The position numbers and the translations under genes were made by a program. Below, piece after piece: positions 155-31,551 of a stretch of 64,000 nt of DNA. Every line of letters begins with the position of its first letter. Position 1 is the first letter of the stretch. Under the pieces are notes generated by a model. That model saw nothing but the letters and a program-made list of their open reading frames with translations. It ran no database searches and was not told where the DNA came from. Source of the stretch: Escherichia phage ES12; the sequence record MN508614.1. One strand, 5' to 3'.

Positions 155-3295
<3,141 letters not shown>

Positions 3296-3323
3296 TATTA
3301 AAGCATATTAAAGAGGATTAAAA

Positions 3324-5303
3324 ATGACTTTATTATCTCCGGGCATTGAGCTCAAAGAAACTACGGTTCAAAGCACCGTGGTTAATAACTCTACTGGTAC
3401 AGCAGCTTTGGCCGGTAAATTCCAGTGGGGTCCTGCTTTTCAGATTAAACAGGTTACAAATGAAGTAGATTTAGTTAATACTTTTGGTCAACCAACCGCT
3501 GAAACTGCTGACTATTTTATGTCTGCGATGAATTTCTTGCAGTACGGAAATGACTTACGAGTAGTTCGTGCTGTTGATAGAGATACCGCTAAAAACTCAT
3601 CTCCGATTGCCGGTAATATTGAATACACTATTTCTACCCCAGGTAGTAACTACGCGGTTGGAGATAAAATCACGGTTAAGTATGTTTCAGATGATATTGA
3701 AACTGAAGGTAAAATTACCGAAGTAGACGCAGATGGAAAAATTAAGAAAATTAATATTCCTACTGCAAAAATTATCGCTAAAGCGAAAGAAGTCGGTGAA
3801 TATCCAGCACTAGGTTCTAACTGGACTGCCGAAATTTCTTCGTCTTCCTCTGGTTTAGCTGCAGTAATAACTCTTGGAAAAATTATTACTGATTCTGGTA
3901 TTTTATTAGCTGAAATTGAAAATGCTGAAGCTGCTATGACAGCGGTTGACTTTCAAGCAAATCTCGAAAAATACGGAATTCCAGGAGTAGTAGCGCTTTA
4001 TCCAGGCGAGTTGGGCGATAAAATTGAAATTGAAATCGTATCTAAAGCTGACTATGCAAAAGGAGCTTCTGCATTACTCCCAATTTATCCAGGTGGTGGT
4101 ACTCGTGCATCTACTGCCAAAGCAGTGTTTGGATATGGACCACAAACTGATTCACAGTACGCTATTATAGTTCGTCGTAATGATGCTATTGTTCAAAGCG
4201 TTGTTCTTTCAACTAAGCGTGGTGAAAAAGATATTTACGATAGTAACATCTATATCGATGACTTTTTCGCAAAAGGTGGTTCAGAATATATTTTTGCAAC
4301 TGCACAAAACTGGCCAGAAGGCTTCTCTGGAATTTTAACTCTGTCTGGTGGATTATCATCAAATGCTGAAGTAACAGCAGGAGATTTGATGGAAGCTTGG
4401 GACTTCTTTGCTGACCGCGAATCTGTTGACGTTCAACTGTTTATTGCGGGTTCTTGTGCCGGTGAATCTTTAGAAACAGCATCTACTGTCCAAAAACACG
4501 TCGTTTCAATTGGGGATGCTCGTCAAGATTGCTTAGTATTGTGCTCACCACCACGTGAAACTGTAGTTGGAATTCCTGTAACTCGTGCTGTTGATAACTT
4601 AGTCAATTGGAGAACTGCAGCAGGTTCATACACTGATAATAACTTTAATATCAGTTCAACCTATGCAGCAATCGATGGCAACTACAAATATCAGTATGAC
4701 AAATATAATGATGTGAATCGTTGGGTTCCATTAGCAGCTGATATTGCTGGTTTATGCGCAAGAACTGATAACGTATCTCAGACTTGGATGTCTCCAGCTG
4801 GTTATAATCGTGGCCAGATTCTTAACGTTATTAAACTTGCTATTGAAACTCGCCAGGCTCAGCGCGACCGTTTATACCAAGAAGCTATCAACCCGGTAAC
4901 TGGTACAGGCGGTGATGGTTACGTATTGTATGGTGATAAAACAGCTACTTCTGTTCCTTCTCCATTTGATCGTATTAACGTTCGTCGTCTGTTTAATATG
5001 TTGAAAACGAATATCGGACGTAGTTCAAAATATCGTTTGTTCGAATTAAACAATGCGTTTACTCGTTCATCATTCCGCACAGAAACTGCCCAGTACTTAC
5101 AGGGAATTAAAGCTCTCGGTGGAATTTATGAATATCGTGTAGTTTGCGATACAACAAATAACACTCCGTCAGTAATTGATAGAAATGAGTTTGTTGCAAC
5201 ATTCTACATCCAACCGGCTAGAAGCATTAACTACATTACCTTAAACTTCGTAGCAACTGCTACTGGTGCAGACTTCGATGAGTTAACTGGTCTTGCAGGT
5301 TAA
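3324..5303 (+). CDS. 18: contractile tail sheath protein (gp18)
   Basis: 659 aa, N-terminus MTLLSPGIELKETTVQ; late promoter TATAAATA upstream. Confidence 0.95.
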   Translation: MTLLSPGIELKETTVQSTVVNNSTGTAALAGKFQWGPAFQIKQVTNEVDLVNTFGQPTAETADYFMSAMNFLQYGNDLRVVRAVDRDTAKNSSPIAGNIEYTISTPGSNYAVGDKITVKYVSDDIETEGKITEVDADGKIKKINIPTAKIIAKAKEVGEYPALGSNWTAEISSSSSGLAAVITLGKIITDSGILLAEIENAEAAMTAVDFQANLEKYGIPGVVALYPGELGDKIEIEIVSKADYAKGASALLPIYPGGGTRASTAKAVFGYGPQTDSQYAIIVRRNDAIVQSVVLSTKRGEKDIYDSNIYIDDFFAKGGSEYIFATAQNWPEGFSGILTLSGGLSSNAEVTAGDLMEAWDFFADRESVDVQLFIAGSCAGESLETASTVQKHVVSIGDARQDCLVLCSPPRETVVGIPVTRAVDNLVNWRTAAGSYTDNNFNISSTYAAIDGNYKYQYDKYNDVNRWVPLAADIAGLCARTDNVSQTWMSPAGYNRGQILNVIKLAIETRQAQRDRLYQEAINPVTGTGGDGYVLYGDKTATSVPSPFDRINVRRLFNMLKTNIGRSSKYRLFELNNAFTRSSFRTETAQYLQGIKALGGIYEYRVVCDTTNNTPSVIDRNEFVATFYIQPARSINYITLNFVATATGADFDELTGLAG

Positions 5304-5319
5304 TACGGTGCATTCTAAA

Positions 5320-5337
5320 GGCCTGTTTCGGCAGGCC
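5320..5337 (+). terminator. hairpin after gene 18
   Basis: GGCCTG-TTTCGG-CAGGCC stem-loop; no T-run, so attenuator or processing site rather than strong terminator. Confidence 0.35.
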
Positions 5338-5338
5338 A

Positions 5339-5346
5339 TATAAATA
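5339..5346 (+). promoter_or_regulatory. late promoter TATAAATA (distal, gene 19)
   Basis: Exact TATAAATA after the post-gene-18 hairpin. Confidence 0.5.
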
Positions 5347-5397
5347 CACTATATCCTTAATTCTTTAATTCTATATGCCCTAGGTTAAACATAGGGA

Positions 5398-5405
5398 TAT
5401 AAATA
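5398..5405 (+). promoter_or_regulatory. late promoter TATAAATA (proximal, gene 19)
   Basis: Exact TATAAATA 14 nt before the gene 19 ATG. Confidence 0.65.
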
Positions 5406-5419
5406 CTACAGAGGCTAAT

Positions 5420-5911
5420 ATGTTTGTAGATGATGTAACACGAGCGTTTGAATCTGGTGATTTTGCTCGACCTAACTTATTCCAAGTAGAAATTTCTTAT
5501 CTTGGACAAAATTTTACGTTTCAATGTAAAGCCACTGCTTTACCAGCTGGTATTGTAGAAAAAATTCCAGTCGGTTTTATGAACCGTAAAATTAACGTAG
5601 CAGGCGATCGTACATTCGATGACTGGACTGTTACAGTAATGAACGATGAGGCACATGATGCTCGTCAGAAGTTTGTTGATTGGCAAAGCATTGCTGCTGG
5701 GCAAGGGAACGAAATTACTGGTGGAAAACCAGCAGAGTATAAAAAGAGCGCTGTTGTTCGCCAATATGCTCGTGACGCTAAAACTGTAACAAAAGAAGTT
5801 GAAATTAAAGGCCTGTGGCCTACTAACGTGGGTGAACTTCAATTAGATTGGGATTCAAACAATGAAATCCAAACCTTTGAAGTAACTCTCGCTCTCGATT
5901 ATTGGGAATAA
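5420..5911 (+). CDS. 19: tail tube protein (gp19)
   Basis: 163 aa, follows sheath gene; two TATAAATA motifs upstream. Confidence 0.93.
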   Translation: MFVDDVTRAFESGDFARPNLFQVEISYLGQNFTFQCKATALPAGIVEKIPVGFMNRKINVAGDRTFDDWTVTVMNDEAHDARQKFVDWQSIAAGQGNEITGGKPAEYKKSAVVRQYARDAKTVTKEVEIKGLWPTNVGELQLDWDSNNEIQTFEVTLALDYWE

Positions 5912-5918
5912 AATGAAT

Positions 5919-5932
5919 GGGGAGAAATCCCC
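5919..5932 (+). terminator. hairpin after gene 19
   Basis: GGGGA-GAAA-TCCCC stem-loop, no T-run. Confidence 0.3.
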
Positions 5933-5943
5933 ATCCTGCTTAA

Positions 5944-7568
<1,625 letters not shown>

Positions 7569-7569
<1 letters not shown>

Positions 7570-7814
7570 TGGAAGGTTTAATTGAAGCTATTAAATCAAA
7601 CGACCTCGTAGCCGCTCGTAAATTATTTGCTGAAGCCATGGCTGCAAGAACGATTGATTTAATTAAAGAAGAAAAAATCGCTATCGCTCGTAATTTCTTA
7701 ATCGAAGGTGAAGAACCTGAAGACGAGGATGAAGATGAAGATGATGACGAAGATAGCGATGATAAAGACGACAAAAAAGACAAAGACTCTGACGAAGACG
7801 AGGATGATGAATAA
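7569..7814 (+). CDS. 67: prohead core protein gp67 with poly-acidic C-terminus
   Basis: 80 aa, C-terminal [18 protein letters not shown] tract typical of T4 gp67. Confidence 0.85.
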
Positions 7815-8239
7815 TGCTTCTGATCCCTGAAACTCATGAATTAGTTCTCGAGAATGTCGAAGCACTTATTCCTGAAGCACAGGGTCGCTTTGACGAATTG
7901 TCTTCTGCTTTAAATAAAGACGATATAAATACAATTGTCGAGAATATGCTTGATGATGAAACTGATTTAGCGGTTGCATTAGCTTCTATTAATGAAAATA
8001 TGCCGTTAAATGAATTCATCGTTAAACATGTTTCCGCTCGTGGTGAAATTACTCGCACTAAAGACCGCAAAACGCGTGAACGTAATGCATTTCAAACCAC
8101 TGGGCTGTCTAAAGCAAAACGTAGACAAATTGCTCGTAAAGCTACCAAAACGAAGATTGCCAATCCAGCAGGTCAATCTCGTGCTCAGCGTAAGCGTAAA
8201 AAAGCTCTTAAACGCCGTAAAGCATTAGGATTAAGCTAA
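7814..8239 (+). CDS. 68: prohead core protein gp68
   Basis: 141 aa, basic C-terminus, position between 67 and 21. Confidence 0.8.
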
Positions 8240-8877
8240 TGAATGAACCCCAATTACTAATTGAAACTTGGGGTCAACCTGGCGAAATTATTGATGGCGT
8301 ACCAATGCTTGAATCTCATGATGGAAAAGACTTAGGTTTAAAACCGGGTTTATACATCGAAGGAATATTCATGCAAGCGGAAGTCGTCAATAGAAATAAA
8401 CGTCTTTATCCAAAACGTATATTAGAAAAAGCGGTAAAAGACTATATTAATGAGCAAGTTTTAACTAAACAAGCTCTCGGAGAATTAAATCATCCTCCAC
8501 GCGCTAATGTTGACCCGATGCAAGCCGCTATCATTATAGAAGATATGTGGTGGAAAGGAAATGACGTATACGGACGAGCTCGTGTTATTGAAGGTGACCA
8601 TGGTCCTGGAGATAAATTAGCAGCTAATATTCGTGCCGGATGGATTCCAGGAGTTTCTTCTCGTGGATTAGGTTCATTGACTGACACAAATAAAGGTTAT
8701 CGTATCGTAAATGAAGGATTCAAATTAACTGTAGGTGTTGATGCAGTATGGGGTCCAAGTGCTCCAGATGCATGGGTAACTCCTAAGGAAATTACCGAAT
8801 CACAGACGGCGGAAGCCGATACAAGTGCCGATGACGCCTATATGGCTCTCGCAGAGGCCATGAAAAAAGCGTTATAA
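8239..8877 (+). CDS. 21: prohead core protein and maturation protease (gp21)
   Basis: 212 aa, recognised as T4 gp21; synteny. Confidence 0.92.
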   Translation: MNEPQLLIETWGQPGEIIDGVPMLESHDGKDLGLKPGLYIEGIFMQAEVVNRNKRLYPKRILEKAVKDYINEQVLTKQALGELNHPPRANVDPMQAAIIIEDMWWKGNDVYGRARVIEGDHGPGDKLAANIRAGWIPGVSSRGLGSLTDTNKGYRIVNEGFKLTVGVDAVWGPSAPDAWVTPKEITESQTAEADTSADDAYMALAEAMKKAL

Positions 8878-26815: not shown

Positions 26816-26818
26816 CAA

Positions 26819-26848
26819 TGGGGACCTTTCGGTCCCCATATTTTTATT
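26819..26848. terminator. bidirectional terminator between gene 54 and alt.-3-like gene
   Basis: TGGGGACC-TTTC-GGTCCCCA followed by TATTTTTATTT. Confidence 0.8.
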
Positions 26849-27134
26849 TACGGAATGAAATGAAAGCAGCAACTGAAGCAACTAAACTGTCTTCAATATA
26901 AACTTCAATTTTTACCGGAGCTTCTGACTCAAATTTACCTGTTACTACACCCTGAAAAATACTTTCAGTCTGTTCTGGCTTTGAAAAATTTTCAGAAGGA
27001 AAAATTCCGAACTTTTTATCTGTTCCAAAAATTTTGATAAATTCATCGTAAACTGCTTCATTAAAAGCATTATCAGCAGGAATAACGCCTTCAACTACAA
27101 GTTCTTGACCTAAAAAGCGCAAAGAAGATTTCAT
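26844..27134 (-). CDS. hypothetical protein (T4 alt.-3 position)
   Basis: 96 aa ORF preceded by an early-promoter-like module and RBS GAGGAAC. Confidence 0.6.
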   Translation of the reverse strand: MKSSLRFLGQELVVEGVIPADNAFNEAVYDEFIKIFGTDKKFGIFPSENFSKPEQTESIFQGVVTGKFESEAPVKIEVYIEDSLVASVAAFISFRK

Positions 27135-27142
27135 TTTGTGTT

Positions 27143-27195
27143 CCTCATGTTATGTCAGTAAGACTACTATAACACAACACGAGGGACTTGTAAAC
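27143..27195 (-). promoter_or_regulatory. early promoter plus leader module (GTTTAC-N18-TATAGT), copy A, upstream of alt.-3-like gene
   Basis: Minus-strand GTTTACAAGTCCCTCGTGTTGTGTTATAGT followed by leader and RBS; 52-nt match to 43101-43153. Confidence 0.65.
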
Positions 27196-29252
27196 TACAT
27201 CTTGAACTTTTTAGACATTCCGTTGATGTTAACCAAAGAAGCTAAGATTTGAGAAACTTCATTTTCCTCTTCTTTTGATTCTTCTACAAGGAATTGATTA
27301 AATCCAGCCATTGGACGAACTTCACCAGTTTCCATTAGATGGTCTCCATCATATACTGATTCTTCTAATTGTTCAGAAGGAGGAACGATTGTACCTTCGA
27401 TTAGATACTTGTTATAAGCAGTTTCTTTCATAAAGTACGTACTTACTTTATTAATCTTCAGTAAAATTCCACGTGGTAGAATAACTTCAGCTTCTGATGG
27501 AAATCCTGATAAATGACCTGGAACGATAACTTTGATTCGCTCAGCTCCTTTAATTACCATACCCACGCTAGTTTCAGCATCTTCATTAGCATATGTAGAA
27601 TGACTACCCATATGCATCAAATCTTCTGCATCAACGGAACCTTCTCCTTCGCCAGAAAATACTGCGCCAGAATCATCTAGAGCCATATAGTTTTTACCAT
27701 GCTCACCGAAGATATTTGGTTTAAGCGATGTGGATACGAAGTTCTTGAAATAGAACATTTTGTTTTCAATGTTATGACGCAAAGTTTTAAAGGTAACTTC
27801 TTGTCCACGATAAAGCGTAGTTCCTGGAGGAAGAACTGAACCTTTAGCGAATGCAGAATCCAACGTCTCGATGTGCTTAATAGCTCGTTCCATATATTCT
27901 TCACGGGTAGAATCTGGTTTACCCAAAAGGAACGAGTTCATTTCAACATATGAATCTGCACAATAATCTTCAATTACATCAGACTCAGCCTGAGTTAATC
28001 CTTTTGGAGTTACTTCGGTGCTTGCGTATTCATATGCCTGAGCAGCAGATTCATTAATCAATTTATAAATGCCATTCATGACAAATTGAATAATAGCTAC
28101 CTTTTCGTCTGGTGTGGCTTTAGAACCTTTAACCAAATCATTGATAATTTTCTTAATAACATCAAAGCTATTAGAAATATTAATATCAGCGAGATCGCTT
28201 AAAATTTTATCAGTCTTATAATCAAAGAATTCTTTATTCTTTAAATATTCTTGAGAACCTTGATATGTTATATCGCTCTGTAACTTGATAGATGGATCAC
28301 GTAAACGTGCATGGGCTAATGCAATATGATTTCGGAAGCTTTCGAGTTCATAATCACTAGATTTAAAACGAGAAGCGCTTCTCATACCGCCTATAGCTCC
28401 TTTGCTGAAGTTTGAACCAATTTGAATAACGCCAGAGTTCATTGGTCCTTCTGCTTTATACACCGGAACTTTAGATTCAAACTCTTGATATTTCTTAGCA
28501 GCGAAGCTATCACCCTGAAGTGAAGCATCAACAGTAGAATATTGAGCTTGTGCTGCTAATCGACGACTAATTTTAGTTTTCTGAATAACAGCTTGGTCCG
28601 TGCGCTTATCATTTTCTAAAGCAATAGAAGCAGCAACAGCAACAGCTTTAGGAACAGCATTTCCTGTTTTAACGTCTACATAAACATCACCGACCTTTGA
28701 TTCAACTTTTGTGAATAACTCAGTTGAAATAGGAGGTACACCTGTAATGTCTTCTAAATTGGCATTTTTACGGTAAACCATAATATATGCATATTTCTTA
28801 TCATAGTCCCAGATTTCCTTTAAAAGAACATATCGACCTGCTCCTTTAGTACGTACTAAACGGTCAGCAATAACTTGCATTTGACGAGCTGCGCCATTTG
28901 TTTTACTTTTTATTACGCGGAATAGGCATGCGTCGATTTTATACTGTTTCATTGTTTGAAGAGCAGTATCAAAAACGGCATTAATGACACCAATTGGATT
29001 TCCACCCAAGTTTTTAAGCTTAACTAATGATAGTTTCTCATTAACACCTATCATTACGATATGCATCATTTTATCGCCTGGCTTAACGTTTTTATTCGTA
29101 TCACCACCAGAGGTATATGTACAAAATCTAAATCCAGGAAGCACGCTTTCTTCGCCGGCTTGAATAGCAAAAATTTGTGGTATTTTATGCTTAGGATTTA
29201 AGTTAACAACCGGCGCCGAAGCGCCGTCAAATAATTCTGTAATAAGTTCCAT
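27195..29252 (-). CDS. Alt-like ADP-ribosyltransferase paralog (putative second capsid-packaged ART)
   Basis: 685 aa; N-terminal about 230 aa and C-terminal ART domain align with the adjacent Alt (MELITELFD..., TLYRGQ, FVSTSL, EAEVILPRG); central region divergent. Confidence 0.85.
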   Translation of the reverse strand: MELITELFDGASAPVVNLNPKHKIPQIFAIQAGEESVLPGFRFCTYTSGGDTNKNVKPGDKMMHIVMIGVNEKLSLVKLKNLGGNPIGVINAVFDTALQTMKQYKIDACLFRVIKSKTNGAARQMQVIADRLVRTKGAGRYVLLKEIWDYDKKYAYIMVYRKNANLEDITGVPPISTELFTKVESKVGDVYVDVKTGNAVPKAVAVAASIALENDKRTDQAVIQKTKISRRLAAQAQYSTVDASLQGDSFAAKKYQEFESKVPVYKAEGPMNSGVIQIGSNFSKGAIGGMRSASRFKSSDYELESFRNHIALAHARLRDPSIKLQSDITYQGSQEYLKNKEFFDYKTDKILSDLADINISNSFDVIKKIINDLVKGSKATPDEKVAIIQFVMNGIYKLINESAAQAYEYASTEVTPKGLTQAESDVIEDYCADSYVEMNSFLLGKPDSTREEYMERAIKHIETLDSAFAKGSVLPPGTTLYRGQEVTFKTLRHNIENKMFYFKNFVSTSLKPNIFGEHGKNYMALDDSGAVFSGEGEGSVDAEDLMHMGSHSTYANEDAETSVGMVIKGAERIKVIVPGHLSGFPSEAEVILPRGILLKINKVSTYFMKETAYNKYLIEGTIVPPSEQLEESVYDGDHLMETGEVRPMAGFNQFLVEESKEEENEVSQILASLVNINGMSKKFKM

Positions 29253-29255
29253 GAT

Positions 29256-31313
29256 TTATCCTTGAACGAACTTGTAAGGCATGTTTGCAATATCTATACA
29301 AGACGCAATAATTCCAAGAGATGATTCTACTTTCTGTTTAACGTTTGATGAAACAAATGATGCAAAGTCAACTCTGTCTTCTATTTCAATATCACCTGTC
29401 ATTGCAACTACTTCGCCGGTTTCCATTAGACGGTCACCGTCATAAATTACCGATTCGGTGAGTTCTTCTGTGGTCATAACTTCAGCTTGAATAAGCTTGT
29501 TGTTAGTTTTAACTGTTCCATCATTGTAAGATGCATCGGTTATTTTATTAACTTTGACCATTAATCCACGTGGCAAAATGACTTCCATTTCATTTGAAGG
29601 TGCTAAACTTCCACCTGGTAAAACAACATTGACTTTATCAGCCCCAGTAATAACCCATCCAATTCCAACTAAATTATCGCTAGAATTTACTAGTCCTTCA
29701 TCAGTTTTATCAATAGAAACACTTAAACGCTTTTCGTCTGGTAAAACACCCACAGATGAATCAGTCATCCAGGTACCAAAAATGTTTGGATATAATGATG
29801 TTGACACAAAATTTCTAAAATAAAAAACTCGATTTTTTACCAGTGCTTCATATATTGAAGGTAACATTCGTTGTGAACGATACAAAGTAATACCTTTTGG
29901 TAATCGTTCACCATTTTTAAAGGCAGAATCTAAATTATCAATAGCTTTTTCTATATCAGATGCTGTCAAAATACTTGTACGCTCATCTGGATTATATAAT
30001 CCCAAAAGAGCGTTATTTATGTCTACATATCCTGAACTTACGTATTCACGAATTCCACGTTTTTGTGCCGGTGTGTATTTAGATGAATCTTTATTTTCGA
30101 CTATAGGATGTAGTGACCATCCAGCGGTAAGAGCATATCCACGCAATTCTCTTCGAATAATCTTTGTTTTTATTGCATTCCAAGAATTTTGTACTAACTC
30201 ATTCGCAGCATCTTGATTTAAATGCGAATGCTTGTTAATGTTTCTTTCTAACCAAGCACCTTTATATTTTTCTAAAGTATCATCAACTATAGAAGCAATA
30301 GTTTCTAAAGTTTTTATTGAAGTAATAGATTCTTTTCGTAATCTTTCTAAAGCTTTATTTTTTATTTCTGCATTAACATCAGATTCTTTATCTTCAGGAA
30401 TTATAGAAGCTTCTCTGAATGCCATTCCAGCTGTAACACTACTAAGAGCATTCTCTAATGCAAATCCTGAAGTAGAAATAACAGTTAATTCATTAGCGTC
30501 AGAAATTAAAGGAGCGTCAGCAGGTTTATTTAATTCTGCTGCTGAAGCCTCAAATTTTTGAAACATCGGCGTTTCAAATCTAGAAGATTCCAATGATTGA
30601 CTTTGCGCAATTGCTCTACGGGAAATTTTAACTTTAACGATTACAGCTTGGTCAGAACGTTTATCATTTTCTTGCGCAATAGATGCTGCAATTGCCTCAT
30701 TTTTAGTTACTTGAGCTCCAGTATCTTTATTGATATAAACATCACCGACCTTCGATTCAACTTTAGTAAAGAGCTCAGTACTAATTTCCGGAACTCCCGG
30801 AATGTCTTCTAGTGATACATTTTTGCGATGTATAAGAATATATGCATACTTTTTATCGTAATCCCAGAGTTCCTTAAGAAGGACGTATCTGCCACCTGAA
30901 CGACTACGGATAAGTCTATCAGCAATAACTTGAATTTGTCGAGCTTGACCAGCGGTTTTAGACTTAAGAATACGAAGCATACAGGCATCAATTTTATACT
31001 GACGCATTGTTTGCATCGCAACAGTAAAAACTGAATTGATATAATTAATTGGGCTTGGACCAAGACCTTTTAATTTAGCAATTGAACCTTTAGCAGTTAA
31101 TGTAAAAGGAACAATATGCATCATTTTATCGCCCATCTTTAAATCGCGATTAGTATCACCTCCAGATGTATAGGTACATAAACGAAAGCCTGGTTGTTCA
31201 ATTGCATCATCAACATGAACTGAAAAAATTTGCGGTATTTTCTTCTTTGGATTTAAGTTTGTAATCGGAAGAGTAGTATCTTCGTCAAATAATTCTGTAA
31301 TAAGTTCCATCAT
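29256..31313 (-). CDS. alt: Alt ADP-ribosyltransferase (packaged, modifies host RNA polymerase)
   Basis: 685 aa; recognised as T4 Alt (MELITELFDEDTTLPITNL...; LYRSQ / STSL / EMEVILPRG motifs); late promoter TATAAATA upstream; true start may be the second Met (31310). Confidence 0.93.
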   Translation of the reverse strand: MMELITELFDEDTTLPITNLNPKKKIPQIFSVHVDDAIEQPGFRLCTYTSGGDTNRDLKMGDKMMHIVPFTLTAKGSIAKLKGLGPSPINYINSVFTVAMQTMRQYKIDACMLRILKSKTAGQARQIQVIADRLIRSRSGGRYVLLKELWDYDKKYAYILIHRKNVSLEDIPGVPEISTELFTKVESKVGDVYINKDTGAQVTKNEAIAASIAQENDKRSDQAVIVKVKISRRAIAQSQSLESSRFETPMFQKFEASAAELNKPADAPLISDANELTVISTSGFALENALSSVTAGMAFREASIIPEDKESDVNAEIKNKALERLRKESITSIKTLETIASIVDDTLEKYKGAWLERNINKHSHLNQDAANELVQNSWNAIKTKIIRRELRGYALTAGWSLHPIVENKDSSKYTPAQKRGIREYVSSGYVDINNALLGLYNPDERTSILTASDIEKAIDNLDSAFKNGERLPKGITLYRSQRMLPSIYEALVKNRVFYFRNFVSTSLYPNIFGTWMTDSSVGVLPDEKRLSVSIDKTDEGLVNSSDNLVGIGWVITGADKVNVVLPGGSLAPSNEMEVILPRGLMVKVNKITDASYNDGTVKTNNKLIQAEVMTTEELTESVIYDGDRLMETGEVVAMTGDIEIEDRVDFASFVSSNVKQKVESSLGIIASCIDIANMPYKFVQG

Positions 31314-31333: not shown

Positions 31334-31341
31334 TATTTATA
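31334..31341 (-). promoter_or_regulatory. late promoter TATAAATA (alt)
   Basis: Minus-strand TATAAATA between hairpin and alt start; consistent with late expression of a packaged protein. Confidence 0.65.
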
Positions 31342-31346
31342 AAATT

Positions 31347-31364
31347 AAAGGCCCGAAGGCCTTT
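31347..31364 (-). terminator. hairpin between alt.1-like ORF and alt late promoter
   Basis: AAAGGCC-CGAA-GGCCTTT perfect 7-bp stem. Confidence 0.55.
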
Positions 31365-31551
31365 AGTAATCTAGTGGTAAGAGAGTACGATATATTTCAA
31401 ACTTTGGTCCTTTTTCATAGGCATCAAATGTTTCTGTAAATTTATTATAAGCGTATGCATCTACAAATTCGAGAATGACTTGTGATACAGAAGTAGAAAC
31501 ATCTCCACCTTCTTTTTGAGCAATGACAATTGTTTCTAAGTAAGCTTTCAT
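31363..31551 (-). CDS. hypothetical protein (T4 alt.1 position)
   Basis: 62 aa ORF between ligase and alt; synteny only. Confidence 0.5.
   Translation of the reverse strand: MKAYLETIVIAQKEGGDVSTSVSQVILEFVDAYAYNKFTETFDAYEKGPKFEIYRTLLPLDY

Follow-up and report, generated by a model that had tools for sequence, protein, structure and literature searches.

How many ADP-ribosyltransferases (ARTs) does a T-even phage inject into its host? The question is raised by a locus of Escherichia phage ES12 (MN508614.1), from which a stretch of 64,000 nt, hereafter the window, was analyzed. On the minus strand it carries two adjacent open reading frames (ORFs) of 685 aa each, at 27195-29252 and 29256-31313, as stated in the initial annotation of this DNA, a model's reading of the sequence alone. 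The ORF at 29256-31313 is alt, the T4-type Alt ART gene recognized there from the outset: its product is 98% identical to T4 Alt over 684 aa and matches the Pfam family PF03496 (ADPrib_exo_Tox; 120.9 bits, E 5.6e-35) and, over its whole length, PHROG 802 (Alt-like RNA polymerase ADP-ribosyltransferase; E 2e-262). The ORF at 27195-29252, here termed alt2, is an intact alt paralog, identified by its reading frame, its matches to the same two families and its ratio of nonsynonymous to synonymous substitution rates (dN/dS), and is the full-length counterpart of the T4 ORFs alt.-1 and alt.-2. By transcription order alt comes first and alt2 second; the paralog had been called the upstream copy by following plus-strand coordinates and is in fact the downstream one. 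Over the 4.8-kb alt region, the window matches Escherichia phage ES26 (MN508618), a Tequatrovirus, at 100% identity, and ES26 stands for it in the comparisons below. We consider, at a probability of roughly 0.6, that Alt2 is a second virion-packaged and injected arginine-specific ART whose target range differs from that of Alt.

The pairwise alignment that had been called for runs from end to end (BLASTP, 41% identity, E 5e-161). Because of this E value the similarity is not due to chance, and Alt and Alt2 are, as judged from the alignment, paralogs that share their N-terminal and ART regions. Alt2 scores 71.6 bits against PF03496 (E 7.2e-20, residues 416-620), for which the curated cut-off is 23.4 bits, and matches PHROG 802 over residues 1-685 (E 5.2e-255). 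Translation of the exact codons gives the motifs LYRGQ, FVSTSL and SEAEVILP in Alt2 and LYRSQ, FVSTSL and NEMEVILP in Alt. The catalytic motifs of Alt2 stand in the correct order, R482 (LYRGQ, 27807-27809), S507-T-S509 (FVSTSL, 27726-27734) and E587-A-E589 (27486-27494), on the minus strand like their counterparts in Alt, R478 (29877-29879), STS (29796-29804) and EME (29583-29591). In an alignment of 16 diverse family members, R482, S507, S509, E587 and E589 are invariant. The R / S-T-S / E-x-E signatures ascribed to both ORFs therefore stand on codon translation, Pfam and this alignment together, and the paralog keeps its catalytic residues as well as, by prediction, the ART fold.

A profile of the family matched C3, CPILE-a, Certhrax and Vis in the PDB, with the R and ExE segments aligned with those of C3 and CPILE-a; the C3-type ARTs were reached by this profile only, as a PDB sequence search with Alt2 alone gave no match. 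The modeled domain appears to conform to the fold of the R-S-E (C3/VIP2-type) ARTs. In the R-S-E clade an E-x-E motif denotes arginine specificity, and from this motif Alt2 would be arginine-specific as well. The same catalytic fold and motif occur in the PF03496 proteins C3 exoenzymes, Vis, the A components of VIP2/iota-type binary toxins and Certhrax. However, these are secreted bacterial toxins with other delivery modules, whereas Alt2 has a phage-specific N-terminal domain and, unlike the C3-type toxins, an insertion of ~40 residues, predicted to be disordered, between STS and ExE.

The relation between Alt2 and Alt differs sharply from one region to the next. Models of both proteins were made with AlphaFold2 from one shallow alignment of 16 sequences in which the two paralogs are mixed (Alt2, pLDDT 72 and pTM 0.60; Alt, pLDDT 71 and pTM 0.53). 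That of Alt2 consists of an alpha/beta domain (residues 12-195), linker helices (200-240), an all-helical domain (250-415), the ART domain (420-625) and a disordered stretch (629-663) followed by a final helix. On the minus strand, the predicted N-terminal alpha/beta domain with its linker helices (aa 1-236, pLDDT 65-87) corresponds to 28545-29252, the central all-helical domain specific to the Alt2/AltB lineage (aa 237-418, helices at pLDDT 75-89) to 27999-28544, the ART catalytic domain with its disordered, variable insertion (aa 419-625, insertion 517-555) to 27378-27998, and the C-terminal tail, mostly disordered in the model (aa 626-685 and the stop codon), to 27195-27377. In Alt2 numbering, identity to Alt is 67% over residues 1-236, ~20% over 237-415, 38% over 416-625, 62% over 626-646 and 31% over 647-685. 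A comparison of Alt2-lineage and Alt-lineage profiles, made region by region (hhalign), finds the N-terminal part (1-236; 67% identity, E 1.6e-92), the ART domain (419-625; 38% identity, E 4.6e-40) and the tail (626-685; probability 99.2%, E 7e-20, 47% identity over 58 columns) to be homologous, so that similarity to the Alt family spans the protein from its N-terminal domain to its tail, while the center (237-418) has no detectable similarity (probability 0.5%). The shared N-terminal region of about 230 aa that had been described is thus confirmed; the statement that the extreme C-termini are unrelated is refuted by the tail comparison. The motif Y-D-G-D-x-x-x-E-(T/S)-G-E and a terminal K-F are invariant in the family, and the invariant tail columns of the 16-member alignment are Y634, D635, G636, D637, E641, G643, E644, F651, F654, K682 and F683.

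The central regions had been described as unrelated too, and here the outcome is divided: sequence homology is indeed undetectable, but the structure prediction that had been proposed gives two all-helical domains of similar length and helix pattern. The run of central helices in the Alt model closely parallels that of Alt2 in number, length and position, and the center measures 160-182 residues in all family members. Alignment of the Alt2 model with an independently predicted model of alta, one of the two alt-type products of phage SP18 (Foldseek), covers 664 columns with TM scores of 0.72/0.78, although the centers are 17% identical. The Alt model aligns poorly with SP18 alta as a whole (TM 0.39/0.42), probably owing to a different orientation of the domains in the models. 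Because of the helix pattern, the constant length and the alignment to SP18 alta, we favor, with moderate confidence and from models, a fast-diverging domain of common architecture over an unrelated insertion. Searched by phmmer against 1.84 billion representative proteins, the Alt2 center (aa 234-431) gave one match, itself a protein of the Alt2 family, and a module borrowed from another protein family finds no support there. No significant family came up in Pfam for the N-terminal or the central region taken in isolation, or in NCBIfam for full-length Alt and Alt2. Sub-threshold matches of the center to CesA (PF11439, E 0.025; PDB 1xou_B, E 0.24) and Noc2 (Pfam, E 0.12) were treated as helical or coiled-coil noise. 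The two CesA similarities, to a type III secretion filament chaperone, are independent of each other and fall at ~28100-28250 (Alt2 aa ~335-384); they are probably helical-hairpin noise. PF26846 is found in precomputed annotation on nearly all full-length Alt and Alt2 proteins; the two proteins without it are fragments truncated at the N-terminus, so that it may cover this part of the protein, and it did not appear in the Pfam scans of this analysis.

Selection on alt2 is strong. Among ES26, T2, FL33 and SH7 its dS is 0.14-0.23 and its dN/dS 0.04-0.06, and the ratio stays below 0.09 in each of the four regions, center included. Because of these ratios, alt2 is, on its substitution pattern, a functional gene under strong purifying selection. 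The Alt2 proteins of these four isolates are 97-99% identical, whereas Alt occurs as two alleles 73% identical to each other: in Tequatrovirus, a T4 type of 682-686 aa and a T2 type of 697 aa (T2, FL33; 705-2798 of each locus). T4-type and T2-type Alt agree closely at their ends (98-100% identity in the N-terminal 240 aa, 92-100% in the C-terminal ~85 aa) and far less in the center (18-55%) and the ART domain (42-79%), a pattern that looks like recombinational exchange of a cassette between conserved flanks.

The history of the pair is recorded differently in its interior and at its N-terminus. Center, ART domain and tail group by orthology: altb of phage JS98 (a Dhakavirus) goes with Alt2 (46, 57 and 63% identity, respectively) and alta with Alt. 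Alt2 is only 9-14% identical to Alt in the center and 36-37% in the ART domain, vs. 46% and 57-58% to JS98 altb; with no similarity of the centers in hhalign, this rules out that Alt2 is an allele or ortholog of T4 Alt. Because center, ART domain and tail group by orthology across genera, these comparisons show a duplication of alt that should predate the split of Tequatrovirus and Dhakavirus. The N-terminal domain instead groups by phage, with 65-67% identity between paralogs of the same phage vs. 42-47% between genera. In three database proteins (P0003, P0005 and P0006), an Alt-type N-terminus (~45 to 200 aa) is joined to an Alt2-type body; read from their sequences, these natural chimeras directly document that the tandem paralogs have undergone gene conversion. 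Moreover, 90% of third positions are shared over the first 30 codons of alt and alt2 in ES26. From the phage-wise grouping, the chimeras and the shared third positions together, the N-terminal domain shows every sign of having been homogenized by gene conversion, of co-evolving with a phage-specific partner, or both.

Further variants of this organization exist. SP18 alta (6883-8757 of its locus) and altb (4813-6873) have two further types of center, 10-21% identical to all others, which brings the center types of the Alt family to at least five or six. At 624 aa, SP18 alta is without the conserved C-terminal tail. Several T4-like phages of Acinetobacter, Citrobacter and Aeromonas (matches in BFVD) have a "split RNA polymerase ADP-ribosylase," whose N-terminal and ART parts are separate proteins, which suggests that the delivery and effector parts are separable.

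This divergence bears on whether Alt2 could be a redundant copy of Alt, packaged and injected with it and modifying identical targets (Arg265 in the alpha subunit of RNA polymerase and minor substrates) as dosage or backup. The two proteins have a common architecture, an arginine-type E-x-E motif and probably a transcription unit in common, the deletion allele described below is frequent, and T4 still performs alteration without Alt2 (reviewed in PMC2988021). Yet the duplicates have been distinct since before the genera separated, with lineage-specific centers and ART domains only 36-38% identical; Alt2 is more conserved among the four isolates than Alt with its divergent alleles; and a dN/dS of 0.05 is not what pure redundancy would lead one to expect. 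We regard redundancy as unlikely.

A T4-type late promoter, TATAAATA, lies on the minus strand at 31334-31341, 21 nt upstream of the first alt ATG, and is followed by the RBS-like sequence GAGAGG; it is the only exact match on that strand between 20547 and 37164. Two in-frame ATGs stand at the start of alt (MMELITE, 31310-31313) in ES26 and likewise in SH7; T4 Alt is annotated from the second, 31310 in the window, which gives 684 aa here. The alt2 ATG is placed 3 nt past the alt stop codon, with an AGGA Shine-Dalgarno sequence inside the end of alt, and no exact match to the late-promoter or terminator consensus was found between the two genes. Because of the late promoter upstream of alt, the 3-nt gap and the Shine-Dalgarno sequence inside alt, the two genes are likely to be co-transcribed late from this single promoter.

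The start of Alt2, M-E-L-I-T-E|L (I-T-E|LFD, residues 4-6), fits the site pattern of the T4 prohead protease, and E6 is invariant in 16/16 family members. The consensus of this protease, gp21, is (L/I)-x-E, as derived from T4 head maturation. In T4, gpAlt is a component of the scaffolding core (~40 copies per head) that enters the cell with the DNA (PMC9958956; PMC2988021), gp21 removes a small N-terminal peptide from it (PMC9958956), and it modifies Arg265 of RNA polymerase alpha and other proteins (PMC2988021). Within the family, this alteration of Arg265 is known from T4 Alt alone (PMC2988021). A further conserved motif, L-M-E|T-G-E, fits the gp21 pattern as well and occurs in the tail predicted to be disordered, within the invariant Y-D-G-D block, at aa 639-641 of Alt2 (27330-27338) and aa 628-630 of Alt (29421-29429). 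It may be a second, C-terminal prohead-protease site; this idea is a weak one because some family members have F as the -2 residue. Cleavage at this site and after residue 6 would give products of 70.3 kDa for Alt2 and 69.4 kDa for Alt, from precursors of 75.9 kDa; mature Alt has been described as smaller than its precursor by several kDa.

Packaging is also where an alternative has to be considered, namely that Alt2 is an active ART that stays out of the virion, acting late in the producing cell or using its N-terminal domain for another purpose, with only Alt delivered. Against it, the N-terminal domain of Alt2 shares 67% identity with that of Alt, which is packaged, has kept I-T-E at residues 4-6 with the invariant E6 and has been repeatedly homogenized between both genes; the conserved C-terminal tail is common to Alt and Alt2; alt2 belongs to a late unit adjoining baseplate genes; and distant single-copy Alt-like proteins of matching layout are virion proteins, as found by mass spectrometry of particles of Morganella phage MP1 and of the Klebsiella ValerieMcCarty phages. 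An unpackaged Alt2 thus seems quite improbable.

The mechanism that we prefer for Alt2 would then run as follows. The genes alt and alt2 would form a late-transcribed two-gene unit, so that Alt2 would be made late together with Alt. The Alt-like N-terminal domain, and perhaps the conserved tail too, would take Alt2 into the scaffolding core of the prohead, where the prohead protease would trim it after I-T-E at residue 6. Injected with the DNA, Alt2 would ADP-ribosylate arginines of host proteins in the newly infected cell, the set being unlike that of Alt owing to the central helical domain of its lineage and the variable insertion of its ART domain. It is plausible that the virion carries into the cell two ARTs, each with a target-recognition module of its own. 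Beyond an intact, conserved and catalytically complete gene in a late unit, however, we infer every step of this mechanism.

T4 itself sheds light on the status of the gene. Where the window has alt2, T4 has two small ORFs, alt.-1 and alt.-2 (NP_049810 and NP_049809), as the initial annotation had tentatively suggested. In a DNA alignment, T4 matches the first ~340 nt and the last ~20 nt of alt2, the intervening part being missing; this corresponds to codons 1 to ~113 and the last 6, and the first 345 nt differ by 12 substitutions and a single 1-nt gap. The deletion measures 1,699 bp and is bounded by two 8-nt direct repeats, TAAAAAGT, the only copies in alt2, which lie on the minus strand at 28905-28912 (left copy, left deletion end) and 27206-27213 (right copy, right deletion end). 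T4 is also short of one A in a run of A at position 160 of the alt2 gene, and this frameshift splits what remains into two ORFs, alt.-1 of 61 aa and alt.-2 of 67 aa. PHROGs 23015 and 15247, which are built from such fragments, match residues 1-56 and 62-117 of Alt2. The T4 GenBank record has alt.-1/alt.-2 stem from an old duplication that took in the first part of alt. According to the alignment, they are instead the remnant of a full-length alt paralog, produced by deletion and frameshift, and alt2 is the ancestral full-length form of this stump; "partial duplication of alt" in the T4 record would be better replaced by "remnant of full-length paralog."

Both alleles are widespread. Searched by tblastn, full-length Alt2 is found at >=80% identity in 402 phage records, in all but one of the sampled rows as a single piece with 100% coverage, so that the gene is not a frameshifted pseudogene in related genomes. 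With the Alt2 center as query, 445 phage records were retrieved, 401 at >=95% identity and 44, from JS98-like phages, at ~45%. Most of the Tequatroviruses sequenced have the gene, and JS98-type phages have orthologs of it. When 101 nt spanning the T4 junction were used as a probe, 91 phage records covered it to >=80%, among them T4 stocks and independent isolates, for example HY03, SG1, ACG-C40, RB55 and RB59. Intact and deleted alleles of alt2 thus stand at ~4:1. Like Alt, Alt2 would appear to be an accessory gene, with a natural deletion allele of the T4 type in circulation. In phage Elenatom, alt2 (2501-4544 of its locus) is read as two overlapping ORFs (2501-4135 and 4122-4544), through a frameshift or a sequencing error. 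Although the deleted, frameshifted remnant in T4 and 90 other records and the split Elenatom gene could be taken to mean that alt2 is a decaying duplicate on its way to the T4 state (a pseudoenzyme or non-functional ORF), its intactness in ~400 records, a dN/dS of 0.04-0.06 over many synonymous changes, the invariance of all catalytic residues and the retention of an ortholog in another genus reject a pseudogene and bring decay close to refutation.

Several points nevertheless weigh against a packaged and injected Alt2 with targets of its own. The 91 records with the T4-type deletion include T4 itself, which thrives without alt2; because these phages do well without the gene, any role of Alt2 must be conditional. 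Co-transcription with alt is deduced from motifs, and a late-promoter-like sequence with one mismatch, TATAGATA, is situated at 29291-29298, 39 nt upstream of alt2. The structural models are of moderate confidence and derive from the one mixed, shallow alignment. Finally, in the searchable literature no report was found on the presence of Alt2 in virions, its processing, its activity or its targets, and no virion proteomic report for the paralog.

The novelty that had been implied for the tandem pair is not borne out. T2, FL33 and SH7 have the pair in their annotations, JS98 (Dhakavirus) and SP18 (Gaprivervirus) have it under the names alta/altb, and many RefSeq records list an "Alt-like RNA polymerase ADP-ribosyltransferase (x2)." Duplications of alt had been noted before by Nolan et al. 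(2006), who named T4 alt.-1/alt.-2 and ORF187c/188c of phage 44RR (PMC1524935), and this genomic remark is all that a literature search for any study of the Alt2 paralog returned. The second copies of T2 (gp211, T2_202), FL33 and SH7 are 97-99% identical to alt2 and occupy the equivalent position, and JS98 altb is its ortholog at ~50% identity; in SP18, the central regions of the alta/altb pair are again dissimilar, from each other as well. No experimental characterization was found for JS98 altb, SP18 altb, T2 gp211 or the second copies in RefSeq. The gene itself is therefore not a discovery: alt2 is known as an annotated gene from hundreds of genomes. What is added here is the exact origin of alt.-1/alt.-2, the ~4:1 ratio of intact to deleted alleles, the constraint on Alt2 as against the allelic diversity of Alt, and the conservation of the delivery ends around variable effector interiors.

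Among the known systems close to Alt2, T4 Alt has the same length, layout (N-terminal alpha/beta domain, helical center, R-S-ExE ART domain, conserved tail), MELITE N-terminus and genomic slot. They differ in overall sequence (41% identity), in the central ~180 aa, which are without detectable similarity, in the ART domain (36-38%) and in the separate Alt2/AltB lineage. The other T4 ARTs, ModA and ModB, are small, consist of a single domain and lack the N-terminal, central and tail regions of Alt. They belong to the same R-S-E clade as Alt and are arginine-directed (PMC5512222), but unlike the packaged Alt they are made early and do not enter the cell from the phage head (PMC5512222; PMC2988021). 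The internal proteins IPI-IPIII of T4 follow the route proposed for Alt2, as they enter the scaffolding core, are cut by gp21 after (L/I)-x-E near the N-terminus and are ejected with the DNA (PMC9958956; PMC7697877). In contrast to Alt and Alt2, for which no defined capsid-targeting sequence (CTS) is documented, these proteins are small and have a cleavable CTS of ~10 residues, and there is no sequence similarity between them.

What is known of ADP-ribosylation by injected phage enzymes comes almost entirely from T4, a carrier of the deleted copy of alt2. Should Alt2 prove to be packaged and active, the standard view of a single injected ART, Alt, next to the early pair ModA and ModB would be incomplete for most T-even phages. 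A broader and more tentative proposal, which we hold to be possible but doubtful as a whole, is that most T-even phages inject two different ARTs, T4 being a natural knockout of the second, that Alt2 has targets of its own set by the helical domain, and that the Alt family is a delivery scaffold with effector cassettes (center and ART domain) swapped by recombination. In that case the family could be likened to polymorphic toxins, with a conserved, phage-matched N-terminal domain and tail around the exchanged cassettes. The targets of Alt2 could then be proteins of translation, RNA metabolism or anti-phage defense and not RNA polymerase alpha, and the presence or absence of alt2 would help to explain differences between T4 and T2/T6-type phages in host takeover or sensitivity to defense. 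The near-invariance of Alt2 next to a polymorphic Alt points to a conserved host target, and the deletion allele (T4 and 90 other records) provides a natural comparison strain.

The surroundings of the pair are those of T4. Genes 29, 48 and 54 are encoded on the plus strand and alt.-3, alt2, alt, alt.1 and ligase on the minus strand, as in T4, and the alt/alt2 slot between gene 30 (ligase)/alt.1 and alt.-3/gene 54 is common to T4, T2, JS98 and SP18. The alt.-3 homolog (26844-27134, minus strand; 96 aa) belongs to DUF5498 (PF17602, E 1.4e-64), and alt.-3 is annotated at the matching position in T4. Directly after the alt2 stop codon, at 27166-27194 on the minus strand, a strong sigma-70/T4-early-type promoter with an extended -10 was detected (GTTTACA-17-TATAGT with TG; 10/12 in the scan), which presumably drives alt.-3; its first letters fall inside the alt2 stop codon itself (ATGTAGTTTACA...). 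This location nests an early gene directly behind the late unit on the matching strand. A hairpin resembling a bidirectional terminator (26818-26839, both strands; 9-bp stem with 6 G-C pairs) separates alt.-3 from gene 54. At the other end, a terminator-like hairpin found by consensus scan (31346-31365, minus strand; 8-bp stem with 4 G-C pairs, then a T-run) follows alt.1, upstream of the alt late promoter. The alt.1 homolog itself (31363-31551, minus strand; 62 aa) matches the Pfam family PF24647, "Phage blade protein," with an E value of 1.9e-29.

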